Positions 4,638-42,721 of a stretch of 64,000 nt of DNA are shown here, in pieces. The notes beneath the pieces were generated by a model. It was not told the origin of the DNA, did no database searches, and saw only the letters and a program-made list of their open reading frames with translations. The position numbers were made by a program, and so were the translations under genes. The stretch's first letter is position 1. Each line of letters opens with the position of its first letter. The stretch is from a virus, in IMG/VR virus record IMGVR_UViG_3300034061_000981, positions 32,001-96,000 of that record; one strand, 5' to 3'.

Positions 4638-4990
4638 ACACTGAAAACAACCAAGAAGAATATGTTATAATATGGGAACAGCCCAAGCTAGAACCACCTG
4701 AGTTTAGGTTATATTATGATGAACACGGTGCTGTTGTATGTTACACCGGAGATAAATCTACAACCGGTGATTATATAGTTATTGATGCACTTACATTTGC
4801 ACAAGCAAGACCTGACGTAAGAGTTATCAACGGCAAAATATCTACTGTTTATCCCAATGCGGTTGTGCATAAGTTAATGCCAAGTAAGGATGAGGGGATA
4901 GATTGTCATCCGGAAGATATAAGTATACTTGTTGATAAAAAAGATTACAATAAAAAACAAAAATGGAAACTAACTACATATGAACTCTGA
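4634..4990 (+). CDS. Hypothetical protein
   Basis: 118 aa ORF overlapping both neighbours. Confidence 0.7.
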   Translation: MNTENNQEEYVIIWEQPKLEPPEFRLYYDEHGAVVCYTGDKSTTGDYIVIDALTFAQARPDVRVINGKISTVYPNAVVHKLMPSKDEGIDCHPEDISILVDKKDYNKKQKWKLTTYEL

Positions 4991-5933
4991 AGATATTATT
5001 GACGTAGCAGATTTAGATTGTATCTATCTAAGCTACGATGAGCCACAGAAAGAAGAATTCTGGCTAAAGATTAAGAACATGGTGCCTTGGGCAAAACGTG
5101 TTGACGGTGTTAAAGGTAGTGATGCCGCACATAAAGCCGCAGGTGAAGCAAGTGATACCGAACGATTTATTTTAATTGACGGTGATAATATGCCTGATGA
5201 AGAATTTTTCAATATTCAATTAAACTTTACTGGTAAAGACCCGTCGTTTAAAAAAGCACAGTTTCGTTGGAAAGCAATAAACGCAATCAACGGTTTACGC
5301 TATGGCAATGGCGGTATGAGTAGCTGGACAAAAGAATACGTTGCTAAAATGAAAACTCACGAACATCAAACAGATGGTGATGTATCACGCATTGCTGACT
5401 TCTGTATGGGAGGCAATGATAATTTGTATTGGGCGATGTATAACTGCTATAGCACAACACATCCTAACTATACGCCATTTCAAGCATGGCGCGCAGGATT
5501 CCGTGAAGGGGTAAAGATGAGTTTAGACAGAGGTGCTAGACCAACAGTAGAACAATTTAAACAAACAGTAGCAACACGTAATTTAAACAATCTAACTATT
5601 TGGCACAACATCGGTCGTGATGTAGAGAACGGAGAGTGGGCTATTTATGGTGCTCGTCTTGGAACGTATATGACTATGTTGACTGAATGGGACCACGCAA
5701 ATGTGCAATGGTTTGATAACTATACAGTATTGTGGGAAGAACATATGAATAGAGACCCTGATCGTGAGTCAGCGTTGCTCGGAGCCGCACTGCATGACAA
5801 ATTGGGACTACCGATGAACCACTTTGACAGTGGACAAAGTAAATTCTTTAAGCGTCACTATAAAGCAGACTTTCATAATTTAGATCCTCTAGTAACTGAG
5901 ATGGATGTGATTCGTAGAATCGAAGGATGGTAA
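4980..5933 (+). CDS. GT-A-like glycosyltransferase
   Basis: YLSYDEP..RVDGVKG..AHKAA..FILIDGDN (DXD)..NGLRYG..AWRAGFREGVK; homologous to the C-terminal domain of 33255..38945. Confidence 0.6.
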   Translation: MNSEDIIDVADLDCIYLSYDEPQKEEFWLKIKNMVPWAKRVDGVKGSDAAHKAAGEASDTERFILIDGDNMPDEEFFNIQLNFTGKDPSFKKAQFRWKAINAINGLRYGNGGMSSWTKEYVAKMKTHEHQTDGDVSRIADFCMGGNDNLYWAMYNCYSTTHPNYTPFQAWRAGFREGVKMSLDRGARPTVEQFKQTVATRNLNNLTIWHNIGRDVENGEWAIYGARLGTYMTMLTEWDHANVQWFDNYTVLWEEHMNRDPDRESALLGAALHDKLGLPMNHFDSGQSKFFKRHYKADFHNLDPLVTEMDVIRRIEGW

Positions 5934-25254: not shown

Positions 25255-25284
25255 ATTAAGTTTTATAGTATAATTTTAATAGAT

Positions 25285-25290: not shown

Positions 25291-25314
25291 CTACTTGAAG
25301 TAAGGAGATATTGT

Positions 25315-27597
25315 TTGGATTCAAACACCGATTCGAAGGTAGTTCTAAAAGAAAGACCCACAGCAGATGTTGCAGATGAACGTCATCAAGCGATGATGGA
25401 TGCCATTGCGCCCTATGCTAAAAAATCTATACAGAAAAATTTAACTCCAGTATATGTAGATTATAAAACACGCAACACAAAAATGGTATTGGTATTGTGC
25501 CCTGAATGGTCACCTTACATGCCTCCGTTTTCGTTAGCAAAACTATCCGGAATTGCTAAAGCTGCCGGATATGAAACAAATATTATAGATTTGAATGTTA
25601 GAGCATACAATGCTCATAAAAACGATTGGAGACCAAATAACAAATTACCCTTTAGGTTGTGGGATCCAGCCGCAAGTTGGCACTGGTTGGGTGACACGTA
25701 TTCCAAAGATATTCACCCTGTACTAGAACCATTACTCTCACAAGCTATTGATGAAATTGTTGCAATGAAGCCTGACGTTGTTGGCTTTAGTGTTTATTAC
25801 ATTAGTGAAGAACCCACTAAGTGGATGTGCCAAGAGTTAAAGCGTAGACTACCTAATGTAAAGATTGCAGTAGGCGGCCCTAATGTACATAAACATTGGT
25901 TTGCAATTCACGATTACTATGACTATGTTATTGTAGGTGAGGGTGAAAACAATCTATTAGTCATGCTTGATGAAATTGAAGAAAAGATTGAAGTTCAATA
26001 TCCACGAGTATTAACACAACCTGAAGACCAGCGTATCAATATTAACAATTTGCCGATGCCAGACTATGAAAGTATTGACTTCTCACAGTATGAGATGCCA
26101 AATGGTATCAACAGTGAAATTAGTCGAGGTTGTACAGCTAAATGTACATTCTGTGAAGAAACACACTTCTGGAAATATCGTCAACGTCAAGCAGTTGATT
26201 TGATTACAGAGATTGAGTGGTTATATTACAATAAAGGTACTGATGTTATTTGGTTTATTGATAGTCTTATTAATGGTAATATCAATGAACTTAGAGCATT
26301 TGCATTAGCACTCAAAAATAAAAATTTAGAGGTTAAATTTGCAGGTTATGCACGACATGATGGTCGTATGGATAAAGCATACTTGAAAGATTTAGCAGAT
26401 GGTGGTTGTTTGCGATTTAACTTTGGTAGTGAATCCGGAAGTCAAAAAGTATTAGACGATATGGCTAAGGGTGTGACTATTAAAGAGATGGAACAAAACT
26501 TTATTGATTGTAAAGAATTGGGTATAGGAAGCGATACTAACTGGATTGTAGGATTCTCCACTGAGGATTATCAAGACTACTCAGATACAATGACATTACA
26601 ATGGCGTATGCGTGAAAATATTAGTAACATGGGTTTAGGGGTAGGCTTTGCAGTAGGTCCAGAAACTATTGTAGGACAGAATCCACATAGATTTAATGTT
26701 AGCTATCATAAGTATCAGAATCATTGGATTACTAATGATTTATCTAAAGGTGGTACACACATTATGATGCGTGTGAAAAATATTCACATATGGGCTGACT
26801 TAATATCACATTGCAAAGAAGGTCCGGCAACCACATATCCAGTTCGTTTCGCACTAGCACAAAAGCATTATAAGATTAAATTTAATGATCCGCTATGCCG
26901 TAAAGAGATGAATTATGAAAAATTTGATTATGATATCATTCCACCGGTAGATCCTAACAATAAATTTGCAAATCAGCTTGTGAATGAAATATGGCCATTA
27001 TTAAGAAATATTTGGAGAGCAAGAGGCGGATATGAAGCAGAGATACTTTTTAATCCTGAACTTGATTTAGTAGAATTTGGATCGCAATTTGGTCCGGGTA
27101 TGTTTAATGCCGTATATAAGTTTAAGATTAGTGATGATGGAAAGTGGGAAGCAGACTTTGATATGCACTTTAATCAACATATTGATAACCCAGAAGATAA
27201 TAGATTACCTCCTCCAGAAGGTCGTAGGGGTCCTTTCTATGCACAAGATTATTCAAGGGCACAATCTAATACAGTTAAACGTGCTAGAAGATTAGCAAAA
27301 CCAAAATGGTCAGATGAAAAAGGTCGTAGTGGTCAAGACTTTACTGATTTATTAAATGAAGAAGAATATTTAAATAAAAATATAGATTTTACCTTTGACC
27401 TACATTATGTAGGCACTGGTGATTGGGGTAACTATGCTGATTATGAAGTAAAAGTATCTGATAAGAAACGTGATGCTATTCCTGAAAAAGAAGTAATGTA
27501 TATACCTAAAGTACCTGTGTCCCCAGTAGTTCCTGAAATTGCTACAATTGATATTTCTCAGATTAAAAAAAGTAGAAGACCATTGTTTCCAGTATGA
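25315..27597 (+). CDS. Cobalamin-binding radical SAM protein
   Basis: VVGFSVY, IAVGGP, GEGE; SRGCTAKCTFC; FGSESGSQKVL. Confidence 0.88.
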   Translation: MDSNTDSKVVLKERPTADVADERHQAMMDAIAPYAKKSIQKNLTPVYVDYKTRNTKMVLVLCPEWSPYMPPFSLAKLSGIAKAAGYETNIIDLNVRAYNAHKNDWRPNNKLPFRLWDPAASWHWLGDTYSKDIHPVLEPLLSQAIDEIVAMKPDVVGFSVYYISEEPTKWMCQELKRRLPNVKIAVGGPNVHKHWFAIHDYYDYVIVGEGENNLLVMLDEIEEKIEVQYPRVLTQPEDQRININNLPMPDYESIDFSQYEMPNGINSEISRGCTAKCTFCEETHFWKYRQRQAVDLITEIEWLYYNKGTDVIWFIDSLINGNINELRAFALALKNKNLEVKFAGYARHDGRMDKAYLKDLADGGCLRFNFGSESGSQKVLDDMAKGVTIKEMEQNFIDCKELGIGSDTNWIVGFSTEDYQDYSDTMTLQWRMRENISNMGLGVGFAVGPETIVGQNPHRFNVSYHKYQNHWITNDLSKGGTHIMMRVKNIHIWADLISHCKEGPATTYPVRFALAQKHYKIKFNDPLCRKEMNYEKFDYDIIPPVDPNNKFANQLVNEIWPLLRNIWRARGGYEAEILFNPELDLVEFGSQFGPGMFNAVYKFKISDDGKWEADFDMHFNQHIDNPEDNRLPPPEGRRGPFYAQDYSRAQSNTVKRARRLAKPKWSDEKGRSGQDFTDLLNEEEYLNKNIDFTFDLHYVGTGDWGNYADYEVKVSDKKRDAIPEKEVMYIPKVPVSPVVPEIATIDISQIKKSRRPLFPV

Positions 27598-28184
27598 ACT
27601 CGGTAGAACATTTTGAGAAAATAGTTGCAGAATATTACAATGCACCATATGCGATAGCAACTGATTGTTGCACACATGCAATTGAATTGTGTTTGCGACT
27701 TACTGAGCCTGTGTATGTTAAATGCCCTAATCATACATATCTCAGTATTCCAATGACGTTCAGTAAGTTAAAACTTCAGTGGAATTTCACTGACGAAAAA
27801 TGGCAAGACTACTACACTATTACCAATACTAATATTATAGATGCCGCCGTTTATTGGAAAAAGAATAGCTATATCAGAAACACATTGATGTGCTTGAGTT
27901 TTCAATATAAGAAACATTTGAACATTGGTCGTGGTGGTATGATTCTACTTGACAATACAGAACAGTATGAACAATTACTAAAGATGCGATATGACGGTAG
28001 GTTAGACAACATACCCTGGGCAGAGCAAGACATTGATATAATAGGATATCATTATTACATGACTCCTGAAAATGCTGATATCGGTATTGAGAAATTTAAG
28101 ACAGCAAGTATAACAGAACCTAAACAATGGTCATATAAAGATTATCCTGATTTAAAGAAAATGAAAGTGTTCAATGCTAAGTAA
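27594..28184 (+). CDS. Short DegT/DnrJ/StrS-family PLP aminotransferase
   Basis: DCCTHAIEL, IIDAA, LSFQYKK..GRGGMI; only 196 aa. Confidence 0.75.
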   Translation: MNSVEHFEKIVAEYYNAPYAIATDCCTHAIELCLRLTEPVYVKCPNHTYLSIPMTFSKLKLQWNFTDEKWQDYYTITNTNIIDAAVYWKKNSYIRNTLMCLSFQYKKHLNIGRGGMILLDNTEQYEQLLKMRYDGRLDNIPWAEQDIDIIGYHYYMTPENADIGIEKFKTASITEPKQWSYKDYPDLKKMKVFNAK

Positions 28185-29145
28185 AAACGAATGGGATCCA
28201 CTACAATCAGTTATTGTAGGTATTGCTGATGATGCTAAGATTCCTAAACTTGATACTAGTTTACGTTGTGTAAACTATGCAGACTTACAGTCTACAATAC
28301 AAGTTGGTAACTATCCGCAACAAGTTATTGACGAAGCAAACGAAGATTTAAATAATTTAGTATCATTCTTAGAGGGTGAAAGTGTCACAATATACAGACC
28401 TAACACAAAGTTTGTGCCTGAGTATTATAACTACTGCCCACGTGATACTGTGTTAGTGCATGATGACTTAATATTAACTACACCTAATCCTTTACGAGCA
28501 AGACAAACAGAACATCTTGCTATGTTAGATACACTAAAAGAACACGGTAGTGTTATTACTAAATTGCATTCTGGTCATGAAAGTCTGTACAATACAAATT
28601 GTGTAGGTAATCCAAATATACTTGCATTGAATGAGACTGAGCCTGCGTTTGATGCGGCAAACATATTGCGTTCAAATGATGATTTGTTTTATCTAGTAAG
28701 TAATAGTGGTAATAAAGCTGGCGCTAAATATCTGCAAGAATTATATCCTGATAAGAAGGTTCATACGATTGAAGGTGTGTATAGTTATATGCACTTAGAT
28801 AGTACAATTGCATTATTGCGTGAGGGATTGATGTTACTGAATCCTGCACGTATTAAGAGTATTGAACAACTACCCAAACCATTGCAATCATGGGATGTTA
28901 TTTGGGCGCCCGAGCCAGTTGATATTGGTCATTACCCGGGATACTGCAATGCTAGTACATGGGTAAGTATCAATTTGTTTAGTGTTAATCCTAACTTAGT
29001 TATAGTTGAAGAACACCAAAACAACTTGCGTAGTGAATTAGAAAAATATAATATAGAATGTGCTATGTTACCAATGCGTCACGCACGAACACTGGGAGGA
29101 TGCTTTCATTGTGTAACACTAGATTTAATTAGGAATCATGTATGA
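28174..29145 (+). CDS. Amidinotransferase (inosamine-phosphate/glycine amidinotransferase family)
   Basis: NEWDPL..VIVG, YCPRD, FDAAN, MHLDST, C-terminal GGCFHCVTLD. Confidence 0.9.
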   Translation: MLSKNEWDPLQSVIVGIADDAKIPKLDTSLRCVNYADLQSTIQVGNYPQQVIDEANEDLNNLVSFLEGESVTIYRPNTKFVPEYYNYCPRDTVLVHDDLILTTPNPLRARQTEHLAMLDTLKEHGSVITKLHSGHESLYNTNCVGNPNILALNETEPAFDAANILRSNDDLFYLVSNSGNKAGAKYLQELYPDKKVHTIEGVYSYMHLDSTIALLREGLMLLNPARIKSIEQLPKPLQSWDVIWAPEPVDIGHYPGYCNASTWVSINLFSVNPNLVIVEEHQNNLRSELEKYNIECAMLPMRHARTLGGCFHCVTLDLIRNHV

Positions 29146-30914
29146 AAGAAAAATGGAAAAGAGGTCATTTTGGAAGATTCTGGGACCTTAATGAGTTTAA
29201 AAAATTTGATTATGTTCGTCAACCCATTACTGCTGAAGAAGTAGCTGAGTGGGAATCACAGGGCTATGACCATGTTAAAAGTTTTACTGGTCAAATGTAT
29301 GACAATAGAAACCCTATGCCTGATTGGATACAAACCTTTAAGGGTCTTTTTCTTACGTATAAAAATATGACATTTACTTTCTATAAGATGAGTACATTAG
29401 AAATAATGCCAGAGCACTCAGATCATTATAGAACGTATATAAAAATGTTTGATGCTAAAAGTGAAAATGTTCATCGTATTTTAGTAATGCTTGAAGATTG
29501 GAAACCGGGTCATTATTTAGAAATTGATGGGGTTGGGATTACCAATTGGATTGCAGGAGATTACTTTATGTGGCGCGCCGATTGTAAACATGCCGCCGCA
29601 AATATAGGCATAGAAGATAGGTATACATTACAAATAACATGTGAAGAAGTTGAAATTACTGACACATGGAATACGTTACATTGGTATAATATTCCCGATA
29701 TGATCTCTAGGGATAGTTCTTATCTATATTATATGGATCGCATTTTAAGTTTTATACCAAAGGATATTAGTACTAATCCAATGTTCATTTATATGTTTAA
29801 CGAAAACATAAATGAATTAGAAAATATAACACATGATGACTTTGCTATAAATGAATTAAACAATAAAGGTTTAACAATTTATTTAACGGAACCTTTATGT
29901 AGCTATCTAGTAGGAGCCCCACAATGGCATCCACCTAAAGGAACTAAACATAATATGATGTTTTACTCTGAGTTTGAAGGTTTTGAACGCCCCCAACAAT
30001 TTAGAGCAGATGAATTGGATAGCATTGAAAGATATGTAATTAGAAATCAATTAACAAATGTAAAAGTTTATACATGTGACTATGATGCAAAAAAATGGTA
30101 TCCGTACTATTCAGATTTTATGCAAATTGGTTATGATGATTTGTTTGTAAAATCTGTATTACCTAAAAAGATTTACAATCCAGAAGTAGAACCTAATTTT
30201 ACTAAAAAATTTATTTGTTTAAATTGGAGATATACTCCACATAGACAAATGCTAGCGGCATATGTCGCTCCCCTATCAAGTCATGTCAGTTGGTATTTTA
30301 GAGGCGAGTTGGGAATTGTGGGACGGCAATATTGGTGTGATATATTTAACATTCAAATGCGTGACCCGGAAGTGTTTGGTAAATTAATAGCCGGTGTCGA
30401 ATATTTAAATATACATTCTCCTATGAATGTTGATTTAAATCTTACAGAACCAGTTACTATATTACATTCATATTTTAGACATTGCATGCCTAATGGCACA
30501 CTATTTGACCATACTAAAGGTGAATTAGATGAAAATAAGATGGAAGAATCATATAGAGATGTGTTTTGCGATATTGTTACTGAATCAAGATTTGCACAAC
30601 CAACCGGCAATTATAGCGAAAAAACGTTTCACCCTATGTGGTTTAAGAAGCCCTTTGTGTTGGCTGCACCTCCTAACACATTAAAGTTATTAAAAGAGCA
30701 TGGCTTTAAAACATTTAGTGATTTTTGGGATGAGTCATATGATTCAATTACTATACACGAAGAACGTTTATTAAAGATTTTTGAAGTAATTGATTTTATT
30801 AATAATAAATCAATAGAAGAACTACAAGAAATGTATGTTCAAATGAAACCAATATTAGAACACAATTACAATTTAATAAAAGAAAAATTACCACCAATTG
30901 GGATACAAAAATGA
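29142..30914 (+). CDS. Fusion: Fe(II)/2OG oxygenase-like domain plus GT10-like glycosyltransferase (paralog 7)
   Basis: PEHSD..HAAANIG..RYTLQIT; C part: IVTESRF..YSEKT..KKPF..WDESYD. Confidence 0.65.
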   Translation: MKEKWKRGHFGRFWDLNEFKKFDYVRQPITAEEVAEWESQGYDHVKSFTGQMYDNRNPMPDWIQTFKGLFLTYKNMTFTFYKMSTLEIMPEHSDHYRTYIKMFDAKSENVHRILVMLEDWKPGHYLEIDGVGITNWIAGDYFMWRADCKHAAANIGIEDRYTLQITCEEVEITDTWNTLHWYNIPDMISRDSSYLYYMDRILSFIPKDISTNPMFIYMFNENINELENITHDDFAINELNNKGLTIYLTEPLCSYLVGAPQWHPPKGTKHNMMFYSEFEGFERPQQFRADELDSIERYVIRNQLTNVKVYTCDYDAKKWYPYYSDFMQIGYDDLFVKSVLPKKIYNPEVEPNFTKKFICLNWRYTPHRQMLAAYVAPLSSHVSWYFRGELGIVGRQYWCDIFNIQMRDPEVFGKLIAGVEYLNIHSPMNVDLNLTEPVTILHSYFRHCMPNGTLFDHTKGELDENKMEESYRDVFCDIVTESRFAQPTGNYSEKTFHPMWFKKPFVLAAPPNTLKLLKEHGFKTFSDFWDESYDSITIHEERLLKIFEVIDFINNKSIEELQEMYVQMKPILEHNYNLIKEKLPPIGIQK

Positions 30915-31669: not shown

Positions 31670-31754
31670 ATGGTTTAAAAATTTAGTTAGAGAATACAAG
31701 TACCGCAAGCGCATTAAAGAATTACGCAAACGAGATCCATTTATTTACAAATGA
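31656..31754 (+). CDS. 32-aa basic peptide ending DPFIYK, upstream of the carbamoyltransferase
   Basis: SD AGGAG; MFIVRWFKNLVREYKYRKRIKELRKRDPFIYK; ATGA overlap with 31751. Confidence 0.7.
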   Translation: MFIVRWFKNLVREYKYRKRIKELRKRDPFIYK

Positions 31755-33244
31755 ACTATATCGGTATAAGTGCAGGCTTCCATGATGCGGCCCTAAGCGT
31801 CATAGATAGTAACGGCAATATTGTCTTTGCTGGTCATAGTGAACGCTACAGCAAACAAAAACATGACAAACATTTGTCAATGGGTATTGTTGAGGATGCG
31901 TTAACTTATTGTAACGATGAAGTTGAGATTCACTATTACGAACGTCCAGGGATGAAGTTTTTGCGACAATTACGTTCAGGTGAAAAGCCTAAACTATCTA
32001 GTTTATCTGTTAAAGAAACAATAGGCACAGGCTTATTGCATAAACTACAAGATGGTCGTGGTGGCAAAGTGCATACACATAATCATCACTTGAGTCATGC
32101 CGCCGCCGGCTTTCAAACAAGCCCCTACGATGATGCTACTGTAGTTGTTATCGATGCTATCGGTGAGTTTGATACTATTAGTATCTGGAACGCATGGTAT
32201 GATAAGAACGGTAAGGCACAATATAAAAAGTTGTGGGGGCAAAAGTATCCAGACAGTATTGGCTTATTCTATTCAGCAATGACTGAAAGAGTAGGCTTAC
32301 GCCCACTAGATGAAGAATACATACTGATGGGTATGGCAGCTTACGGTAAATCAAATCCAGTAGATAAAATGTCTACTGAATTAATAGAATCATACAAAGA
32401 CATTACATTCAAAGACAATTTACATACAGGTGTACCAAATACTTTCTTAGAAGGTGTTGACGAAATGAGTATTGCTACTAGCGCACAATTGATTGCTGAA
32501 CAACTAATAATGAATGTTATTAGCAAAGCAAAAAGTTTAGGTGGTAGTAAAAACCTAGTATACGGTGGCGGTGTAGCATTAAATTGTTTAGCAAATAGAT
32601 TGCTAGGAGAGTATTATGACAACATTTGGATTATACCTAATCCCGGTGACGCTGGTTCTAGTCTCGGAGCAGCCTGTATCGGTTATGGTAAACGTGTTAA
32701 TTGGACTAATGCTTTCCTCGGCTATGATATTACTGGGCCTTATCCTGCTAATCGTATCATTGATTGTTTGGTTACTGATAAGATTGTGGGGGTTGCTAGT
32801 GGGAGGGCGGAATTCGGCCCGAGAGCATTAGGCAATAGAAGTTTATTAGCTGATCCAAGAGGAACAGAAATTAAGGATAAAGTAAATGAAATTAAACGTA
32901 GACAAAAGTTCAGACCTTTCGCCCCGGTCATTCTGGAGGAGTATGCTGATGATTATTTTGATATGCCTCCTGGCTTCAATAATAGTAGGTATATGCAAGT
33001 CATCGCTCGCTGTAGGCATCCTGACTTATTTCCTGCTATCGTTCACGCTGACGGGACTAGTAGGGTACAGACTGTTCCGAAAGATGGAAGTGGAATAAGA
33101 GAACTATTAGAGAAGTGGTATGTATTAACAGGTTGCCCAATGCTACTTAATACAAGTTTAAATATTCGAGGAGAGCCAATGGTAAATGACCGAAAAGATG
33201 CGGATCGCTTTGAATTAATGTATAATGTAAAAGTTATATCATAA
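31751..33244 (+). CDS. O-carbamoyltransferase (NodU/CmcH/TobZ family)
   Basis: GFHDAA, HHLSHAA, DAIGE, GGGVALNC, PGDAG, EFGPRALGNRS, K.RQ.FRPFAP, LLNTSLN.RGEP. Confidence 0.95.
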   Translation: MNYIGISAGFHDAALSVIDSNGNIVFAGHSERYSKQKHDKHLSMGIVEDALTYCNDEVEIHYYERPGMKFLRQLRSGEKPKLSSLSVKETIGTGLLHKLQDGRGGKVHTHNHHLSHAAAGFQTSPYDDATVVVIDAIGEFDTISIWNAWYDKNGKAQYKKLWGQKYPDSIGLFYSAMTERVGLRPLDEEYILMGMAAYGKSNPVDKMSTELIESYKDITFKDNLHTGVPNTFLEGVDEMSIATSAQLIAEQLIMNVISKAKSLGGSKNLVYGGGVALNCLANRLLGEYYDNIWIIPNPGDAGSSLGAACIGYGKRVNWTNAFLGYDITGPYPANRIIDCLVTDKIVGVASGRAEFGPRALGNRSLLADPRGTEIKDKVNEIKRRQKFRPFAPVILEEYADDYFDMPPGFNNSRYMQVIARCRHPDLFPAIVHADGTSRVQTVPKDGSGIRELLEKWYVLTGCPMLLNTSLNIRGEPMVNDRKDADRFELMYNVKVIS

Positions 33245-33254: not shown

Positions 33255-36200
33255 ATGCTAAGAGATGTATTTTATTACGGTAAAAAGCCCAACGTTCACC
33301 CAAGAGAAAAATTTGCAACTTCATTAGAAGATGCAAGACAGCAATCAACTACAGAACATTTTTGGATAATCAATGAATACTGTGATTATCGCAATTTTGA
33401 TTGGGACTTTGATTTTGATTTTTTACCTGACGAAGATGTATGGGCAGAAGCACATATTAACGTGTGGCCTAGCCAACATCAAAAAGATAGTGGCACCTGG
33501 CTAGTTAATACTGATAACACATCATCACTAATAATCTATCGTGCAGATGTTGACGTTGTTAACCGTAAGAAAATTAAAACAGATGAATGGGTTGAGTTAG
33601 ATTCAATTGACAACTCTAAGTTTGATTTTAGTTGGCATCCTGATCCGACAGATCCTCCTTATATCTATAAATGGGGTAATAAATTCGCACCTGTACGATT
33701 TAAACCATGCTTAGAATATCATACACCGGGCGCTACTCAAATTAAGTATATGGATCAGATTGCTGAATTGTTGCCCAACGACTGTTGGGTTGAAGTTCAA
33801 CAAATAGATAAAGATAAATTTGACATGTCATGGAGACCTGATCCAATGGAACCTCCTATGATATATATATGGGGTAATAAGTATGTACCTGCAAAAACAG
33901 CATCTACATTAGAGTATCATGTTCCCGGTGCAACGGAAAAGAAATTCATGCCGGAAAAGCTAACATTAGTAGCTAACATGAATAATTGGGATCTATTAGA
34001 AAACGTTGATAAAAATAATTTTGACTTTGCTTGGATACCTGATCCAACTAGTCCTCCATATATCTATGTATGGGGTAATCAATGGAATAAGCCAGAAGAT
34101 AAAATCTCTATTCAATATGTAGTAGAGGGCGCAACCGAATACAAATACATGGAAGCACGTACTACACGCAAGCCATGCATGGACAACTGGATAGTACCTG
34201 CTAATGTTGATGTAAGTAATTTTGATTTTAGTTGGGAACCTAGTCCAGCTGACCCTGCGTTTATCTACCAGTTTGGTACGCAATGGCAAAAGACTAATGG
34301 CCCTCGTTATATAGTAGAAGATGCAACAGAAGTTAAGTTTGTATCAACAATGTCTGCTAAAGCGTTACCTACAAAAGATAATTGGACATTACCTAGTAAT
34401 ATTGATATTGCTGATTTTGACTTCAGTTGGCACCCAGATGATACTAGCCCTCCATACATTTATGTATTTCCTACACAGTGGGCATTAAGCGGTGGACCAA
34501 TATATACAGTTGACGGCGCCACAGAAATTAAGTATGTAGAAGACATGGTTGCTAAAGCAATCCCCGATAAAACTAACTGGGAAGTCCCTACATACATTGA
34601 TAGTGAATCATTTGATTTCTCATGGCATCCATATGCACAAGATGAACCATACATTTATCAATTTGGTACACAATGGCAAAAGACAGGTGGTCCGGTATAT
34701 AATACACCTGGTGTTCATAAGAATAGTGCAATCAAATATATTGATACACGTATTATAAAGTCAAAACGTTTACCTTCTAAAAGGGGATTTGCTACGCTAG
34801 GTAACTTACAAATCAAAGATTTTGATTACTCATGGCATCCAGATACAACTGACGAGCCATACATCTATGTGTTCGGCAACAACTTCTACTCAGGTGAGTT
34901 CATGCCTACAATTGAATACGTTGTACCGGGTGCAAAACAAATTAAGTATGTACATGACATTGTTGCTACGCTAGCAGTTGATATGACAAACTGGGAAGTA
35001 CCGGAGAACGTTGATGTTACAGGAATTGATTTCAGTTGGAAACCTAATCCCAAAGATCCTCCATTCATCTATCAGTTTGGTACACAACATCAAAAAACAG
35101 GTGGGCCTAGATATGTTGTGCCAAGCGCAACAGAAGTCAAGTACGTTGAAGAACCTAAAGCAAAGGCGTTTGCCTCAAAAGATAACTGGGAAGTTCCTAC
35201 TAATATTGATGTAGCTGAATTTGATTTCTCTTGGCACCCGGATTATAGCGAACCACCATACATATATGTGTTTGGAACACAGTGGGCGTTAACTGGTGGA
35301 CCTAAGTATATTGTACCTGGCGCAACAGAAGTCAAGTACATTGATACTATTGTTGCAAAGGCTGCCCCCAACAGAACGCACTGGTCAGTACCTGATGATA
35401 TTGATTCTACTACGTTTGACTTCTCATGGCACCCATATGCCGAAGATGAACCTTATATCTATCAATTCGGTACTCAGTGGCAGAAAACAGGCGGTCCGAT
35501 ATACATGCCACCTGAAGCTGACGCAACCTGCTTTACAAAATATATTGACACACGTATTCTTAAAGCAACTAAGTTGCCTCATAAGAAATATTGGTCAGTC
35601 GCTGAGGGTGTTAAAGTAGCAGAGTTTGATTACTCATGGCACCATGATGAGACAGAAGAACCATATATCTATGTGTTCGGTAATAATCTCTATTCAGGTG
35701 AGATTATGCCTACTGTAATTTATACTGTTCCGAGCGCAACAAAAACAAAATACATTTCTACTGTTCTTGCTAAGTTAGCTAACAATATGGACAACTGGGA
35801 TGTACCCTCTAATTTAGATACAAGTGACTTTGACTTTAGCTGGGTACCTAATCCCAAAGAACCTGCATACATATATCAGTTCGGCACACAACATCAACGT
35901 ACAGGTGGACCTCGTTACATAGTCCCGGGCGCCACTGAAGTTAAGTATATTGATGTTAAAGCTAAACGATTGCATACTAGAGACAACTGGATCGTCCCTG
36001 ATAACATTGATGAATCAAGTATTGATTTCAGTTGGCATCCAGACGATACAGAATCTCCATACATATATCATTTTGGAACACAATGGAATAATAGGGGAGG
36101 CCCGGAGTATCATGTTCAGGGAGCTACTGAATTAAAATATTCATCTAACATTGTCGGTAAAACTAAAAAGTCTAAGCAAGGTTGGAAATCATTAATTCAG

Positions 36201-38945
36201 ATTGAAGAAGATAAGTTTGACTACAGTTGGGTACCTCATCCGTACGATCCACCTTACATTTATGTATTTGGCAATCAGTGGAACGTTGCTGAGTTAGAAC
36301 CTACTGTTGAATATGTTGTTGAAGGTGCTACTGAAAAGAAATATATACATGATATTGTAGCAACTGTTGCTCAACGTAAACATGATTGGAACATACTTGA
36401 AGATGTTGAGAGTTTCGATTATTCATGGAGACCTAATCCAACTGATCCAGCATATACTTACGTGTTTGGTAATAAACAATATCCCGGCAACATCATGCCT
36501 ACTGTCACCTTGACTATCGAAGGTGCAACACAAGAAAAATTTGTTGATGATATTGTTGCTACCTTGGCACAAGATATTAGTAAGTTTACTAACACAAAAT
36601 TAATTAAAGAGTTTGATTATTCATGGAGACCGAATCCTAAGGATCCCCCGTATATATACCAGTTTGGTACACAATGGGCAAAGACACATGGTCCACAATA
36701 TATCATTGAAGGTGCAACAGAAACAAAATATGTTGAAAGTGTAAAAGCAGTTATTGCACCAAACATGACTCATTGGGAAGTTCCTTCTGGTGTCAATGTG
36801 AGCAAATTTGATTTCTCTTGGCATCCAGATGCTAACAGCCCACCCTACATCTATCAGTTTGGTACTATCAGTGATCCTAGCGATGGTCCTAGATATGTTG
36901 TTCCCGGAGCAACAGAAGTTGTTAACATGGAAAGAATTGAAATTGTAGGAAACGTATTTGTTGATTATCCTAAATACTTTATTGAGACAACACTAGAGGC
37001 ATTGATTGAGCAACATAAAGGTGAAGTATTCTGGGCATTGAATAATGAGATTGATTACACTAACTTTGATTTCAACTGGAGACCTGATATTCAACAGGCT
37101 CATTATGTACACGCATTTGGTTCAAGTGAGAGTGAAACAACACAAACTTACTTTATCAATAGTAACATGTGGGTGAACGGATACAGAGAACTAAATTGGG
37201 TCAAAGATGAAAAACTTGACGACCAAACACTTGCTAAGTTGTTTAAGAAACCAGATATGTTCTTTGTTGATAAGGGTAATAGTGAAGCACAAGACCGTTT
37301 TGATAAACTAAAACAACGATTCCCTACTATACAAAAAACAAGATATTTAAATACGTGGGTTGATACTATCAACCGTTGTATTAATCGTGCAACTACTAAC
37401 TTGTGCTGGATATTAAATTCAGAATTAAATTACGATCACTTTGACTTTGAATATTATCCTAATCCTTGGCAGATGAAAATGGTTCATGTGTTCGGGACTC
37501 AGTGGAGTCACTGGGGTACAACGTTCATGGTTAACCGCGAAACGTTTACTACTGATACCAAGTATGTCAAAATCATTGAACATTTGAATAATATTAACTT
37601 TGTCAAAGATCGTACAGCTATAGCAACAAATATATTATATGACACAGTTTACATTGACCATGGAAACAAACCAGTTCCAATGAACACATTGGTCATTGAA
37701 TATGATGAAAGTTATCTCAAAACGTTTAAAAAGTTACTAGAAAAGTTACCTAATAAAAAAGAACATTTTGTTTGGGTTATTAGTTCTATATGTGATTACA
37801 ATGGTTTTGACTTTACATACATTTGTGATCCATTTGCACGTGACCAACTACATGTATTCCCTAGCGACAAACAAAAGTTTGGTGATACATTCTTAGTTAA
37901 TGTGAACAAACTACGTGAGTTAATTGATAATGTTGAAGAATTAAAAGATATTAAGGTTAACTACAATCAACACATGCGAGTAAAACGTTTACCCGCGCCA
38001 ACTATTATTACAGAAGGTGATACACATGTCTCTGCTATTCATATTGATTTTGATTTCCCTTATGCTACGTTTCAAACGATTGACAACCAAGAAATAAAAG
38101 TTGTTGATGTTGAGCCAATGAATCTTTGGAGTAAAGAAACAAAAACTATTCAAATTACTAGTGTCGGTGGAACAAGAATTGTTGTTCCTAAAGAAACAAG
38201 AGATCATGTAAAGCGTGAATTGTATGATTATCCATACATTCAAACTAACAAAACATTAGCCAAGTCTACTCCAATGGACATTGTATTCTTAAGCAATGGC
38301 GAGACTGGTGCAGACGAAAACTATGAACACTTAATAAGGACAACACAGGGGTTATCTAATCGTGTTGTGCGTGTTGATGGGGTTAATGGTCGTGTGCAAG
38401 CATATCATGCCGCGGCAGAAGCAAGCAACACACCTTGGATGTTTACTGTATTTGCTAAGTTAAAAGTTAGTAATAAGTTTGATTGGAACTGGCAACCAGA
38501 TAGATTACAGATACCAAAACATTATGTATTCCATGCAAAGAATCCAGTTAACGGTTTAATATATGGTCACCAAGCTATGATTGCGTATAATAAGAAACTA
38601 ACACTTGCTAACAAAGGTAAGGGTCTTGACTTTACAATGGATGATGAGCATGAGGTTGTAGAAATTGTTTCGGGTACAGCTAATTTCAATACTGATGAAT
38701 GGAGTACATGGCGTACTAGTTTCCGTGAAGCACTAAAGTTACGTGCCAATAATGATGAGATTAGTAAGAATCGCTTAGAGTTTTGGTTGACAGTTGGGTC
38801 AGGCAAGTTTTCCCAATACAGTATAGATGGTGCGGCTGATGCGGTAGACTACTATGAATCAGTCAATGGTGATTTTGAGAAGTTAAAGTTGTCATATGAT
38901 TGGCCGTGGTTAAACCAAATGTTCAATAAAAAATATAAGAAATGA
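33255..38945 (+). CDS. 1896-aa repeat protein with C-terminal degenerate GT-A-like domains
   Basis: About 17 tandem repeats of about 66 aa; C-terminal domain homologous to 4980..5933. Confidence 0.8.
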   Translation: MLRDVFYYGKKPNVHPREKFATSLEDARQQSTTEHFWIINEYCDYRNFDWDFDFDFLPDEDVWAEAHINVWPSQHQKDSGTWLVNTDNTSSLIIYRADVDVVNRKKIKTDEWVELDSIDNSKFDFSWHPDPTDPPYIYKWGNKFAPVRFKPCLEYHTPGATQIKYMDQIAELLPNDCWVEVQQIDKDKFDMSWRPDPMEPPMIYIWGNKYVPAKTASTLEYHVPGATEKKFMPEKLTLVANMNNWDLLENVDKNNFDFAWIPDPTSPPYIYVWGNQWNKPEDKISIQYVVEGATEYKYMEARTTRKPCMDNWIVPANVDVSNFDFSWEPSPADPAFIYQFGTQWQKTNGPRYIVEDATEVKFVSTMSAKALPTKDNWTLPSNIDIADFDFSWHPDDTSPPYIYVFPTQWALSGGPIYTVDGATEIKYVEDMVAKAIPDKTNWEVPTYIDSESFDFSWHPYAQDEPYIYQFGTQWQKTGGPVYNTPGVHKNSAIKYIDTRIIKSKRLPSKRGFATLGNLQIKDFDYSWHPDTTDEPYIYVFGNNFYSGEFMPTIEYVVPGAKQIKYVHDIVATLAVDMTNWEVPENVDVTGIDFSWKPNPKDPPFIYQFGTQHQKTGGPRYVVPSATEVKYVEEPKAKAFASKDNWEVPTNIDVAEFDFSWHPDYSEPPYIYVFGTQWALTGGPKYIVPGATEVKYIDTIVAKAAPNRTHWSVPDDIDSTTFDFSWHPYAEDEPYIYQFGTQWQKTGGPIYMPPEADATCFTKYIDTRILKATKLPHKKYWSVAEGVKVAEFDYSWHHDETEEPYIYVFGNNLYSGEIMPTVIYTVPSATKTKYISTVLAKLANNMDNWDVPSNLDTSDFDFSWVPNPKEPAYIYQFGTQHQRTGGPRYIVPGATEVKYIDVKAKRLHTRDNWIVPDNIDESSIDFSWHPDDTESPYIYHFGTQWNNRGGPEYHVQGATELKYSSNIVGKTKKSKQGWKSLIQIEEDKFDYSWVPHPYDPPYIYVFGNQWNVAELEPTVEYVVEGATEKKYIHDIVATVAQRKHDWNILEDVESFDYSWRPNPTDPAYTYVFGNKQYPGNIMPTVTLTIEGATQEKFVDDIVATLAQDISKFTNTKLIKEFDYSWRPNPKDPPYIYQFGTQWAKTHGPQYIIEGATETKYVESVKAVIAPNMTHWEVPSGVNVSKFDFSWHPDANSPPYIYQFGTISDPSDGPRYVVPGATEVVNMERIEIVGNVFVDYPKYFIETTLEALIEQHKGEVFWALNNEIDYTNFDFNWRPDIQQAHYVHAFGSSESETTQTYFINSNMWVNGYRELNWVKDEKLDDQTLAKLFKKPDMFFVDKGNSEAQDRFDKLKQRFPTIQKTRYLNTWVDTINRCINRATTNLCWILNSELNYDHFDFEYYPNPWQMKMVHVFGTQWSHWGTTFMVNRETFTTDTKYVKIIEHLNNINFVKDRTAIATNILYDTVYIDHGNKPVPMNTLVIEYDESYLKTFKKLLEKLPNKKEHFVWVISSICDYNGFDFTYICDPFARDQLHVFPSDKQKFGDTFLVNVNKLRELIDNVEELKDIKVNYNQHMRVKRLPAPTIITEGDTHVSAIHIDFDFPYATFQTIDNQEIKVVDVEPMNLWSKETKTIQITSVGGTRIVVPKETRDHVKRELYDYPYIQTNKTLAKSTPMDIVFLSNGETGADENYEHLIRTTQGLSNRVVRVDGVNGRVQAYHAAAEASNTPWMFTVFAKLKVSNKFDWNWQPDRLQIPKHYVFHAKNPVNGLIYGHQAMIAYNKKLTLANKGKGLDFTMDDEHEVVEIVSGTANFNTDEWSTWRTSFREALKLRANNDEISKNRLEFWLTVGSGKFSQYSIDGAADAVDYYESVNGDFEKLKLSYDWPWLNQMFNKKYKK
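33588..36920 (+). repeat. Coding tandem repeat array, unit W..P..D...FDFSW.P....PYIY.FG.QW...GGP.Y...GATE.KY
   Basis: 17 units counted by eye; units 5-8 and 9-12 form a duplicated block of about 800 nt. Confidence 0.9.
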
Positions 38946-39967
38946 ATTACGCATGTATTAATCAATGGAACAGGCCATCATGGTCTAGTTTCAAAGAAAA
39001 AGTAATGAACGGTAACTACGAGAAGGTCATCTTGTTTGGTCAAAATGAGTGGGCATGGTTCTATCAGGGACCTGAGTTTTATGAACTAGTGGATTATTGT
39101 AAAGAAAAAAACATACATTTTGAGATTGTGACTGGCGCCAATGAAAAAAACTATCCATTTCAAATGGATCACGTTAAAATTAATTGGTGGGATACACATT
39201 GGATAGGTAAAACATATCAGGACTTGATATGCAATAATAAACCTACTGGATTGCCTCTTAGAGTCATTGATCCGTATAAAGATATTCAGTATGATCATCA
39301 TTTTATATCAATGAACAATAGACTACATAAACATAGATGTTTGTTCCTTGACTATATGGCTAAGCACGATTTGATGAAATATGGTGCAGTGTCAATTCAC
39401 TATGGTGAACATTCTGTAAATTATAAATGGCAATATCTTGACTATAAACCCATGTATCTATCAGATGGGGTAGAATTTAATCAGTATAAATTACCTGACC
39501 AATATTTTAATTCATTTGCACAATTAATTAGTGAAAGTACAAACAAGGCTTTGTTTTTAACCGAAAAAACTGCAACTCCTTTGATAATAGGCAAACCATT
39601 TTTGGTTGCTAGCCAAATGAACTTTCATAAGATGTTACGTGAAATGGGGTTTCAGTTATATGATGAAATCTTTGATTACGAATTTGACAGTGAACCAGCT
39701 GTAAATAAACGTTATGATATGATAATGCAAAACTTTGTTAGATTATGTAATATACCACTTAGCGAATTAAAATATTTACAACAACAGTTGGCACCGAAGA
39801 TTATGCATAATAGAAACAGAGCTAAAGAGATTGCATATGATTTGAATCTCTACCCAAAAATTGTATTGGAAGTCATTGACCACTACAAAAAAACAGGAAT
39901 CAATTTGGACAATAATACGGTGTATTTTCACTTGAATTTAGAAAGACACCGAGATTTAAAGTTCTGA
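38942..39967 (+). CDS. Putative glycosyltransferase (GT10-like family), paralog 8
   Basis: FISMNNR.HKHR..LISEST..FLTEKTATP..GKPF..YDEIFDYEFD. Confidence 0.55.
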   Translation: MNYACINQWNRPSWSSFKEKVMNGNYEKVILFGQNEWAWFYQGPEFYELVDYCKEKNIHFEIVTGANEKNYPFQMDHVKINWWDTHWIGKTYQDLICNNKPTGLPLRVIDPYKDIQYDHHFISMNNRLHKHRCLFLDYMAKHDLMKYGAVSIHYGEHSVNYKWQYLDYKPMYLSDGVEFNQYKLPDQYFNSFAQLISESTNKALFLTEKTATPLIIGKPFLVASQMNFHKMLREMGFQLYDEIFDYEFDSEPAVNKRYDMIMQNFVRLCNIPLSELKYLQQQLAPKIMHNRNRAKEIAYDLNLYPKIVLEVIDHYKKTGINLDNNTVYFHLNLERHRDLKF

Positions 39968-39973: not shown

Positions 39974-40002
39974 TTGACATAAATACAGAAAGATAATATA
40001 AT
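39974..40002 (+). promoter_or_regulatory. Consensus sigma70 promoter for the tmRNA locus
   Basis: TTGACA-17 bp-TATAAT. Confidence 0.9.
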
Positions 40003-40008
40003 TAGTTA

Positions 40009-40380
40009 TATTAATATTGCTGTATGAAGCAAAGAGAAAAGTGTCTTGGACGGGGGTGCGAATCCCCCCAGGTCCACCAATAAGGATGATTATGAACGTT
40101 GCACAAACATTAAAAGTTACAGGCTATCTAGTAGGTGCGTACATTGCTTACAAGTTAGGTCTTGAAGTGTGGTGTGTTGTTTATGGACTACTTTATTGAT
40201 GGGCCTGACCTAGATTCGACAGGGCAACAAGTAAATTAGTGGACAGCTCGGCAAAGCAGAAGCCGTTAGGGTTGGGGGAACTCGGCCAAAGAAGCAAAAA
40301 CCATAAACGCAAACGATAGCGTATATTCCTTGGCCGCTTGAGGTTAAGGTGCAGTAGGACTTACTGTATTAAATAAAAAA
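40009..40380 (+). ncRNA. ssrA: Circularly permuted (two-piece) tmRNA gene: acceptor piece ends 40079, coding piece starts 40201, tag ANDSVYSLAA at 40309..40341
   Basis: GGGCCTG (40201-07) pairs with CAGGTCC (40069-75) including the G3-U alanine determinant, then A-CCA; T-arm GGGGG-TGCGAAT-CCCCC; GATTCGAC after the 5' end; ATAAAC-GCA resume context; outer ends approximate. Confidence 0.92.
40092..40199 (+). CDS. 35-aa hydrophobic peptide encoded inside the tmRNA intervening segment
   Basis: SD TAAGGA at 40081-86; MNVAQTLKVTGYLVGAYIAYKLGLEVWCVVYGLLY; stop ends 1 nt before the tmRNA 5' G. Confidence 0.6.
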   Translation: MNVAQTLKVTGYLVGAYIAYKLGLEVWCVVYGLLY

Positions 40381-40384
40381 CCAC

Positions 40385-40410
40385 AATAGGAGCTTCGGCT
40401 CCTATTTGTT
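40385..40410 (+). terminator. Intrinsic terminator after tmRNA
   Basis: AATAGGAGC-TTCG-GCTCCTATT followed by TGTTT. Confidence 0.85.
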
Positions 40411-40527
40411 TGGGTATTCCCAAGTCCATGAACCATCGGGTAATACTTTTTTCCTTCTACCAGTAACAGTAGATGACAACTTACTTGCTCCTTTTTTACC
40501 AAATACTCTTACTTTTTGTGTAAACAA
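40402..40527 (-). pseudogene. Possible C-terminal remnant of a basic protein (homing-endonuclease-like tail)
   Basis: Minus frame reads LFTQKVRVFGKKGASKLSSTVTGRRKKVLPDGSWTWEYPNK*, no ATG, in-frame stop shortly upstream. Confidence 0.3.
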
Positions 40528-40630: not shown

Positions 40631-41512
40631 ATGAAAAAAATCGCATTAGCGACATTATTGGCCGCAACTACAATGGTTGCAACAGCACAAGTATCAATCT
40701 CTGGTAAAGTTGCTCAATTTGCAGACAGCACTAAAACTGGTGTAGTTCGCAATACTGGTATCGTAGGTGAGCCTACAAACAACATCACTATTTCTGCTAC
40801 AGAAAATTTAGGTGGTGGTTTAAGAGCACGTGTTGTATTAGATACAAGCCTTGGTCCAAACACTATCAACGGCGGTGGCACACAATTGGGTGATCGTCAA
40901 GGTACAGTTGGTCTAGCCGCCAAAGTTGGATCAATTGATATTGGTCGTAACGTTCACAGTCAGTTTTTGTCAATCACTAACAACGATGTATTCGGAACTA
41001 TGTATGGTTCAGTTGCCGGTGATGTACATAACTTACGTGGTCTACGTGTAAGCAATGGTGTATTCGCTACAGTTAACCCAATGAAAGGTGTAACAGTTTC
41101 TTATGACCGTACACAGGGTGCAACTGGTCAAGATGCAACTAGTTATGGTGCAGTTGGTTCATTTGCTGGTTTTACAGCAACAGCCGCACGTTTTGAACAA
41201 GGCGCTGAAGTTAGCACAGTAGTTGGTTTGAATACTAAAATTGCTGGCACACGATTGACATACACTCATAGTGATAACACAGGTGCTGTAAACAGCAAAG
41301 GTGATTTAATTGGTGCAAGTCAATCAATTGGTGCATATACTGCTAAGGCAAGTTTTGGTCGTACAAACAAAGATGTTAGAGCCTATTCTGTAGGTGTTGA
41401 CTATGCTTTTAGTAAGAGAACAGACGCGGGTATTGCATACCGTAGCGTTAATAAAGTTGGTGCATCACATGATGTAGCACAAGTTGGAGTTGGTTTAACA
41501 CACCGCTTCTAA
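40631..41512 (+). CDS. Gram-negative outer membrane porin (betaproteobacterial type)
   Basis: Signal peptide MKKIALATLLAA..ATAQ; ENLGGGLRA; VGVDYAFSKRT; C-terminal VGLTHRF; preceded by TAAATA at 40578. Confidence 0.88.
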   Translation: MKKIALATLLAATTMVATAQVSISGKVAQFADSTKTGVVRNTGIVGEPTNNITISATENLGGGLRARVVLDTSLGPNTINGGGTQLGDRQGTVGLAAKVGSIDIGRNVHSQFLSITNNDVFGTMYGSVAGDVHNLRGLRVSNGVFATVNPMKGVTVSYDRTQGATGQDATSYGAVGSFAGFTATAARFEQGAEVSTVVGLNTKIAGTRLTYTHSDNTGAVNSKGDLIGASQSIGAYTAKASFGRTNKDVRAYSVGVDYAFSKRTDAGIAYRSVNKVGASHDVAQVGVGLTHRF

Positions 41513-41642: not shown

Positions 41643-42182
41643 ATGAAAACAGTTGGTGATAAATTAGAAGCATTTGTAGTAACAGGTGTTAAGCCAGGAC
41701 AACCGGAAGATGCATTCTTCCCAATTACAGAAGAAAGTTTTGCAGGTAAATGGAAAGTTATCGTTTACTATCCAAAAGACTTCACATTCGTTTGCCCTAC
41801 AGAAATCGTAGCGTATGATAAATTACGTAGTGATTTTGAAGACCGTGATGCAGTATTGTTGACAGGTTCTACCGATAACGAATTCTGTAAACTAGCATGG
41901 CAAAAAGCACATCCAGACTTAGCAAAGATTAGTCATAATCAATTTGCTGACACAGCCCGTGATGAGCGTAGTTTGATTAATCAACTAGGAGTGTTCTATG
42001 CTCCGGCAGGTGCGGCACTACGTGCAACATTTATTGTTGATCCACAGAACGTTATTCAACACATTACAGTTAATAACTTAGATGTTGGTCGTAGCCCAGA
42101 AGAAACATTGCGTGTATTAGACGCATTGCAAACTGGTGAACTATGCCCATGTTCACGTCCAATCGGCGGAGCAACATTATAA
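41643..42182 (+). CDS. ahpC: Peroxiredoxin (alkyl hydroperoxide reductase C)
   Basis: YPKDFTFVCPTE, GRSPEE.LRVLDALQ, ELCPC. Confidence 0.95.
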   Translation: MKTVGDKLEAFVVTGVKPGQPEDAFFPITEESFAGKWKVIVYYPKDFTFVCPTEIVAYDKLRSDFEDRDAVLLTGSTDNEFCKLAWQKAHPDLAKISHNQFADTARDERSLINQLGVFYAPAGAALRATFIVDPQNVIQHITVNNLDVGRSPEETLRVLDALQTGELCPCSRPIGGATL

Positions 42183-42721
42183 TGCAACCAATTACAATTA
42201 ACGGAGATTGGGTACAGTCCGTAAAAGACAGCATCCCGGACCACTCAAAAGATATCAGATTAAACATTGACGCTGTTATCAATCGTTCAGGTCTAGATCC
42301 AGTTGATACACATGCTATTGCCTATGTATCAGCACTTGCCGCCGGCAATGGTGGATTAGCATTTGAGATTGAACACAATGGTCCTTTGTTTATGGCAGAA
42401 GCTGAACGTGAAGCCGCAAAGACTGCCGCAAGTTTGATGGGTCAAAACAACATTTGGTATCCATTTGTTGAAATGACAGGTGACGAATCAATGAAGGGTT
42501 TACCTGCAGGATTGCGTATGAATGCTTATGCTACTCACGGTGGTGTATCTAAGAAGAAATTTGAAATGTATTCATTAGCCGCAAGTATTATTGGCAAATG
42601 TCATTTCTGTGTAAAAGCACATTATGATACATTAAAGAAAGAAGGAATGTCCACACAAGAGTTAATGGCAATTGGTCGCATCGCGGCTGTTGTTAACTCT
42701 ATTGGTAAGATTGCTATTTGA
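42182..42721 (+). CDS. ahpD: Alkyl hydroperoxide reductase D
   Basis: KDIRLN, AASLMGQNNIWY, FEMYSLAAS.IGKCHFCVKAH; ATG overlaps ahpC stop. Confidence 0.92.
   Translation: MQPITINGDWVQSVKDSIPDHSKDIRLNIDAVINRSGLDPVDTHAIAYVSALAAGNGGLAFEIEHNGPLFMAEAEREAAKTAASLMGQNNIWYPFVEMTGDESMKGLPAGLRMNAYATHGGVSKKKFEMYSLAASIIGKCHFCVKAHYDTLKKEGMSTQELMAIGRIAAVVNSIGKIAI

Follow-up and report, generated by a model that had tools for sequence, protein, structure and literature searches.

A giant protein of tandem repeats and glycosyltransferase-like modules encoded in the sugar cluster of an uncultured jumbo phage

The giant gene and its repeat array

The virus record IMGVR_UViG_3300034061_000981 comprises 107,619 bp, and the 64,000-nucleotide stretch analysed here, referred to as the window, represents its bases 32001–96000. 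The window contains an open reading frame (ORF) for a giant repeat protein. Its constant chassis of about 760 amino acids (aa) consists of an N-terminal module (N), three further modules (M1–M3), a linker (M4) and a C-terminal domain with the predicted GT-A fold of glycosyltransferases (C domain), and a variable tandem array is located between N and M1 (Table 1). The plus strand holds nearly all genes, and the G+C content is about 35%. The completeness of the record was estimated at about 30% by CheckV, and related contigs reach sizes of up to 364 kb, two of them with terminal repeats. Judging from these contig sizes and the low completeness, the record covers part of a jumbo phage genome of approximately 300–365 kb. 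About 28 kb of sugar-tailoring genes are located upstream of the giant gene, and genes encoding terminase, virion proteins, SSB, and ThyA were found 3' of the sugar cluster.

Table 1. Position of the giant gene, its modules and selected neighbours within the window (HMM, hidden Markov model; pLDDT, predicted local distance difference test; nt, nucleotides; SAM, S-adenosylmethionine)
Feature	Position	Residues	Strand	Basis or remark
Stand-alone paralog, 317 aa, intact hhhhDGD motif	4980..5933		+	orthologue of RsoM2USA ORF350: 40% identity, E 8e-80
Carbamoyltransferase, NodU/TobZ type	31751..33244		+	Pfam Carbam_trans_N, Carbam_trans_C; ends 10 nt 5' of giant gene
Giant repeat-protein ORF	33255..38945		+	open frame, 1,896 aa
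N module, truncated GT-A-like, W.I...DY..FD core, without DXD	33255..33578	1-108	+	hhalign; M3 HMM
17 tandem repeats, r1-r17	33579..36962	109-1236	+	64-70 aa each; repeat HMM
Higher-order duplication	34374..35978		+	r5-r8 (34374-35177) pairs with r9-r12 (35178-35978), unit for unit
M1, degenerate module nearest to repeat	36963..37244	1237-1330	+	hhalign; repeat HMM E 5.5e-7
M2, complete compact GT-A-fold domain (predicted)	37245..37664	1331-1470	+	VIA-align on AlphaFold model
M3, GT-A-like, without DXD	37665..38054	1471-1600	+	hhalign M2 vs M3 96.9%, E 1.7e-10; model pLDDT ~90
M4, beta-rich linker domain, limited to Lys-type (xAK) clade	38055..38273	1601-1673	+	hhalign, model
C domain, predicted GT-A fold and helical tail, plus stop codon	38274..38945	1674-1896	+	model pLDDT 90.8; VIA-align; Foldseek
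F-A-K at DXD position	38451..38459	1733-1735	+	opposite DGD of paralog and of RsoM2USA ORF348
FDWNWQP, repeat-core motif in C domain, loop after DXD-equivalent strand	38478..38498	1742-1748	+	repeat HMM E 0.008
Downstream gene, 8-copy TEK-motif family	38942..39967		+	ATG overlaps giant stop (ATGA); fucosyltransferase-like motif

A first-pass annotation of the locus had described 17 aromatic- and proline-rich repeats followed by several degenerate domains, and both parts of this description were borne out. Each of the units r1–r17 scored 78–113 bits with the repeat HMM, and the array consists of 9.0% Pro, 3.9% Trp, 6.7% Tyr, and 4.8% Phe. The consensus of the repeat reads W.VP...D...FDFSWHPDP.DPPYIY.FGTQW....GP.Y.VPGATE.KY with D16, W19, and Y30 being invariant. 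Pairwise identity between units ranges from 24 to 69%, and the highest values occur within the higher-order duplication (r5/r9, 69%; r6/r10, 65%; r7/r11, 51%; r8/r12, 65%). On the DNA, Tandem Repeats Finder called no repeat, as the units are too diverged at the nucleotide level. Had the 66-aa unit matched a known repeat family with another function, this would have spoken against the original interpretation; no match was obtained in Pfam, PHROGs, or in sequence searches against the Protein Data Bank (PDB).

Degenerate copies of the repeat core follow 3' of the array at aa ~1260–1299 (E 5.5e-7), ~1384–1441 (E 2.2e-6), and ~1518. An additional copy, absent from the first-pass annotation, is located at the N-terminus (aa ~36–95). 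Thus, the FDFxWxP core is common to the four modules N, M1, M2, and M3 that flank the array.

Predicted folds of the modules and origin of the repeat

Two AlphaFold2 models were computed from family alignments, covering aa 1471–1896 (pLDDT 90.8, predicted template modelling score 0.85) and aa 1106–1470 (pLDDT 84.3). In structural alignments by VIA-align, the C domain matched B4GALNT1, WrtF, SunS/ThuS, SpsA, STIV A197, and GnT-I with Z scores of 10–11.8 and a root-mean-square deviation (rmsd) of ~3 Å over ~140 residues, and the best Foldseek matches of the C-domain model were GT-A enzymes throughout. M2 matched CHSY3, STIV A197, B4GALNT1, and PBCV-1 A64R at Z scores of 8.9–9.4 (rmsd ~3 Å, ~130 residues). 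Structure prediction, which had been proposed as a check, therefore returned GT-A folds for M2 and the C domain, and the repeats r16 and r17 included in the second model were predicted to be all-beta with about four strands each. The match list of the structural search with the model of aa 1106–1470 was filled by matches to M2.

The two-domain GT-A proteins CHSY3-CHPF and mimivirus R699 aligned over residues 1–342 of the first model, that is, M3 plus C. Tandem GT-A folds within one chain or complex are a feature that these two share with K4CP chondroitin polymerase and lysyl hydroxylase LH3, and structural matches to this group spanned M3 plus C. In contrast to the giant protein, none of them has a tandem array of half GT-A domains or a variable copy number, and there is no sequence similarity (6–10% identity). 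Polypeptide GalNAc-transferases (ppGalNAc-transferases) with their lectin domain and the large clostridial toxins with their C-terminal repeats, also among the fold matches, likewise combine a GT-A domain with a repeated, aromatic-rich region. Their repeats have unrelated folds that do not derive from a GT-A domain, and the likeness is confined to the general logic.

Across the family, N, M2, and C are the best-conserved parts, with a mean top-residue frequency of 0.81 in N and 42 of 140 columns of M2 invariant among 48 relatives. No module of the giant protein has the metal-binding DXD motif, which in GT-A glycosyltransferases closes the fourth strand: FAK occurs at this position in C and NSE in M2, and N, M1, and M3 have none. 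In M2, NSE is followed by L-N-Y, a position occupied by L-D-Y in at least 90% of the relatives. The near-invariant Asp beside the DXD-equivalent site of M2 has accordingly been lost in the phage of the window (S-E-L-N-Y, 37416–37436, aa 1388–1394).

To the modules adjoining the array, the repeat is linked by profile-profile comparison. Using hhalign, the repeat profile matched M1 with a probability of 98.4% (E 7e-15) and M2 with 95.5%; N matched M3 (92.4%, E 5e-7) and M2 (83.5%), and the M3 HMM detected N at aa 29–93 (E 3e-7). The C domain, M2, M3, and the repeats display one order of secondary structure, in which the DXD-equivalent strand is followed by the ~20-residue FDFxWxP loop and by two or three strands. 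Because this order is shared and the profile of the repeat corresponds to the latter half of M1 and M2, the data support the view that amplification of the latter half of a GT-A module of the M type would have given rise to the repeat. The first-pass annotation had proposed that a sub-domain of the glycosyltransferase resembling the C domain and the paralog was amplified. An origin from a GT-A module is in line with the links to M1 and M2 and with the predicted folds, whereas the direct link to the C domain is weak, and no signal was obtained between the repeat profile and the paralog at 4980–5933 by hhalign. When the C-domain HMM was run against single repeats, the register was consistent and no individual match was significant.

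Family size and variation of the repeat number

A word-indexed search identified 938 relatives of 1,042–3,318 aa (clusters at 90% identity), all of them unnamed. Variation of the repeat number, which the first-pass annotation had suggested looking for in relatives, is pronounced. Among 120 relatives with 12–35 repeats, protein length equals 761 + 67.5 × the repeat number (r = 0.996), and ~4–36 repeats occur across IMG/VR loci. Exactly one such gene is present in each of five near-complete relatives, and the repeat was found nowhere else in the genome of the window. Within an abundant clade of uncultured jumbo phages, the giant gene appears to have the status of a single-copy core gene. Our survey of the literature found no description of the giant protein; the 'moraphage' paper (PMC12619734) was considered as a source and rejected, as it covers a different lineage.

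The arrays of close relatives are collinear and differ by the gain or loss of 1, 2, or 4 units; between the window and relative P0006, for example, a 4-unit block is inserted or deleted. Similarity between units peaks at a lag of 4 in 59 of the 120 relatives. Since orthologous units are 73–97% identical, as opposed to 24–69% between units of one protein, the sequences indicate that the units are individually maintained and not homogenised.

To such block gain and loss, which is typical of exposed fibrous proteins, a further explanation can be attached: the giant protein may be a virion- or cell-associated fibre or decoration protein, with the array forming a long shaft that either serves as substrate of the neighbouring transferases, as a glycosylated fibre would, or acts as a binder of host glycans. 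However, both ends of the protein are highly conserved, unlike those of receptor-binding proteins, no structural PHROG was matched, and repeat-free family members exist.

The latter were revealed when the M2 profile was run with HMMER against the full set of 1.84 billion representatives; the scan yielded a superfamily of 306 clusters only. Module HMMs resolved a series of architectures starting with M3-M4-C (~435–450 aa), followed by N-M3-M4-C and by N-R1 or R2-M3-M4-C, R denoting the repeat and its number, with N-R22-M1-M2-M3-M4-C being the longest among the representatives listed. A sister clade keeps DXD and has M-type modules in front of the C domain. In P0246, P0267, P0292, and P0279, different modules have been amplified before the common C domain (M3-like ×9, M1-like ×8–11). 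Amplification of modules is independent and recurrent in lineages of the superfamily.

The C domain and its FAK site

The first-pass annotation had aligned the last domain of the giant protein with the product of 4980..5933, noting FAK in place of the DGD motif of this paralog and a copy of the repeat core within the domain. All three observations were confirmed. The C domain (nt 38274–38942) is 25% identical to the paralog (BLASTP, E 2e-8), family profiles aligned over 184 columns with a probability of 97.5% (hhalign, E 7.7e-12), the motifs RVDGV.G, H.AA.EAS, NGL.YG, and WR..FRE..K are present, and FAK is exactly opposite DGD. The core copy FDWNWQP...HYVF (aa 1742–1761) is a weak match to the repeat HMM (E 0.008), and an equivalent weak match occurs in the C domain of four of the five near-complete relatives.

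Within the INPHARED phage collection, the only match was to the C domain and came from RsoM2USA, a cultured Ralstonia jumbo phage. Its region 216629–219688 encodes a trio of a GT-A protein (ORF350, 317 aa), a radical-SAM protein (ORF349), and a second GT-A protein (ORF348), all annotated as hypothetical. ORF348 (233 aa, VVDGDN) matches the C domain (29% identity over the full length, E 5e-25) as well as the paralog (E 6e-35) and so connects the two. The HMMs of M2 and M1 also align with ORF348 in register (E 4e-4 and 2e-3, respectively, in single comparisons), and NSE of M2 falls opposite DGD. ORF349, located between the two GT-A genes, matches the window at 5927–7327 (E 2e-96); the order GT-A/radical-SAM/GT-A is thus kept between RsoM2USA and the window. 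The paralog, which gave a related match at E 9e-13 and has more than 8,000 close relatives without a name, forms an unnamed phage GT-A family together with ORF350 and ORF348. Homology of the C domain to this family extends from end to end and takes in the helical tail, and the motifs RVDGV.G, NGL.YG, DF, and WR..FRE are shared. In contrast to these single-domain proteins, which keep hhhhDGD, the C domain of the giant carries FAK and follows ~1,670 aa of other modules in the same chain. The giant protein, the paralog, and eight superfamily members yielded no match in Pfam (including Glycos_transf_2, PF00535), PHROG, or NCBIfam, and sequence-based searches of the PDB, whether by single sequence or by profile, gave none either. 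The sole label found was an automatic 'Glycosyltransferase 2-like' on a cluster neighbouring that of the paralog in a protein atlas.

The absence of DXD from all modules would be expected if the whole protein were catalytically dead, a pseudo-glycosyltransferase that serves the pathway as scaffold, multivalent sugar binder, or length ruler while the separate enzymes perform all catalysis. Constant ends kept apart by beta units that look rigid and vary in number fit a ruler or spacer. GT-A complexes such as CHSY3-CHPF can include inactive GT-A domains as scaffolds, and this solved multi-GT-A protein was among the structural matches, as was vaccinia H3, an envelope protein with a GT fold.

However, the conservation pattern of the FAK site points in another direction. 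Its Lys is invariant in 53 orthologues, and x-(A/G)-K/R occurs at the DXD position in 87 of 109 C domains of the superfamily, including those of the repeat-free 435-aa forms. DAD, DGD, or DSD is found in the remaining 22, in which M-modules precede the C domain and M4 is absent. Six positions change in concert between the two motif types, namely the Lys itself (K62/D) and five others (H83/V, Y84/H, F86/W, H99/Y, T148/S). Between the Lys and DXD clades, 27 positions are identical, many of them polar; among the shared residues are D2, S7, E10, T53, N90, Y97, D119, T121, R151, E152, K155, and R167 in C-domain numbering. Because the Lys is conserved, five sites co-vary with it, and 27 positions are kept, the FAK site has the pattern of one remodelled under selection and older than the repeat expansion, rather than that of an inactivated relic. 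The designation as an 'inactivated' glycosyltransferase in the first-pass annotation is accordingly doubtful. The strong selection on the Lys and its co-varying partners before the repeats arose, the retention of polar residues common with the DXD clade, and the enzyme-like appearance of the minimal 435-aa members all argue against a dead scaffold, which we regard as somewhat unlikely.

The sugar cluster and its surroundings

The giant gene is an operon partner of sugar-tailoring genes. The carbamoyltransferase directly upstream has homologues in 57 of 78 related loci, where its median position adjoins the giant gene. The upstream cluster further encodes four SPASM/radical-SAM paralogs, two B12-radical-SAM proteins, an epimerase, a UDP-sugar dehydrogenase, a protein with a methyltransferase domain, a DegT-type aminotransferase, and eight copies of the TEK-motif family. 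A smaller syntenic cluster houses the minimal 435-aa form, together with carbamoyltransferase (26 of 39 loci), TEK-family (28 of 39), and SPASM (25 of 39) genes, as well as epimerase and aminotransferase genes (34–35 of 39). Carbamoyltransferase and SPASM genes are likewise present at both DXD-type loci.

No transmembrane segment was found in any protein of the cluster, and for this reason assembly probably takes place in the cytoplasm and on a soluble acceptor. A lipid-linked surface polysaccharide was rejected as the product, as the cluster is without membrane proteins.

The lack of lipid-carrier and export machinery is also what would be expected of a cluster that glycosylates a soluble protein, as the fibre explanation would have it, and viruses are known to encode the glycosylation of their virion proteins (Freeman et al. 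2023, as cited in PMC12619734). Against a role of the giant as a fibre, its gene lies inside an enzyme operon, with the nearest structural genes ~18 kb away; together with the features of the family given above, this makes a fibre or decoration protein improbable in our view.

The cytoplasmic nature of the cluster would equally suit a hypermodification of the phage DNA with sugars in which the giant protein takes part, in place of the synthesis of a free or protein-linked glycan, and phage glycosyltransferases that decorate DNA bases have been described (Pyle et al. 2024, as cited in PMC12619734). However, the ThyA homologue is genuine (345 bits at an equivalog cut-off of 327 bits), and no hydroxymethyl-pyrimidine route was seen. 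In addition, about ten transferase-like and nine radical-SAM genes are far beyond the known needs of DNA sugar modification, and it is not obvious what an array of 17 units would do on DNA. This explanation is the weakest of the alternatives, owing to the genuine ThyA and a cluster far in excess of what DNA sugar pathways are known to require, and we consider it very improbable.

Several genes of the cluster and its surroundings have unusual features. The eight TEK-motif paralogs (12074–30914 and 38942–39967, plus strand) share SES...E.F.TEK...P...KKPF and resemble GT10 fucosyltransferases without a Pfam or PDB sequence match. Two fused members occur, one with a methyltransferase domain (23365–25254) and one with an extra N-terminal half (29142–30914). 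Three of the radical-SAM paralogs (7324–11119, plus strand) have the SPASM region N-terminally at aa ~20–88 and the core at aa ~131–309, the reverse of the usual order; the fourth and more distant paralog (5927–7327) is the orthologue of RsoM2USA ORF349. The product of 103–783 (plus strand) displays a weak match, just below the cut-off, to the Peptidase_G2 intramolecular-chaperone autoproteolysis domain (E 3.9e-5), which is typical of the C-termini of tail spikes and fibres, and the sugar cluster may start right after a fibre gene. On the other side of the giant gene, a permuted two-piece transfer-messenger RNA with the tag ANDSVYSLAA was predicted by ARAGORN at 39987–40432 (plus strand), and a sigma-70 promoter with a perfect 12/12 consensus is found just upstream (39974–40002). 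This is followed by a homologue of Gram-negative porins at 40631–41512 (plus strand; Pfam Porin_4, E 4.5e-20), present in 14 related loci, and by an AhpC/TSA peroxiredoxin and a CMD (AhpD-like) protein at 41643–42721 (plus strand), an oxidative-stress pair in a phage.

Possible function of the giant protein

The reading that we tentatively favour, with a probability of about 0.45, is that of a multi-module GT-A-fold protein which acts as an enzyme or ligand-binder of the pathway and carries a non-catalytic, extensible repeat arm. According to this model, a half-module made up of the DXD-equivalent strand, the loop with FDFxWxP, and the two or three strands after it would have been amplified between N and M1. 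The C domain would still be working, or at least bind a nucleotide sugar, and its conserved Lys would replace the metal-binding Asp to form a metal-independent site. The modules devoid of DXD may serve as accessory binding domains. The array would act as an arm on which a repetitive soluble acceptor (a glycan chain or a glycoprotein) is held or spaced as assembly proceeds in the cytoplasm.

Several points weigh against this reading. Loss of DXD normally abolishes catalysis by GT-A enzymes, and the idea that a Lys may stand in for the metal draws on metal-independent members of this fold. The direct profile match between the repeat and the C domain has a probability of 76% and extends over 21 columns only; the proposed derivation of the repeat from an M-type module draws on profiles and topology. 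Finally, the giant protein could be structural.

In metal-independent GT-A enzymes, such as the GT14 core-2 GlcNAc transferase, basic side chains replace the metal. The giant protein resembles them in having a conserved basic residue where the metal-binding Asp of DXD would sit; they differ in that the Lys of the giant occupies the DXD position itself, and there is no sequence relationship. A bolder version of the favoured model, which we hold to be unlikely, envisions that half a GT-A fold has turned into an autonomous 66-aa beta domain, that the resulting rod of 4–36 units would set the length of, or serve as a track for, a glycan or glycoprotein fibre made by the phage in the cytoplasm, and that the C domain would perform a new Lys-based, metal-free GT-A chemistry.

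The giant family is large and at the same time invisible to Pfam, PHROGs, and NCBIfam. It represents a clear natural case of a repeat domain born from a fragment of an enzyme fold, with extant intermediate stages of 0, 1, 2, and more repeats. The Lys-for-Asp switch at the DXD site provides a directly testable hypothesis on metal-independent GT-A chemistry, and the RsoM2USA trio offers an experimentally tractable way into the family. Building of complex glycans in the cytoplasm has so far been documented mainly for giant eukaryotic viruses. The fixed position of the giant gene within a membrane-free sugar cluster of ~35 kb suggests that large phages share this capacity.

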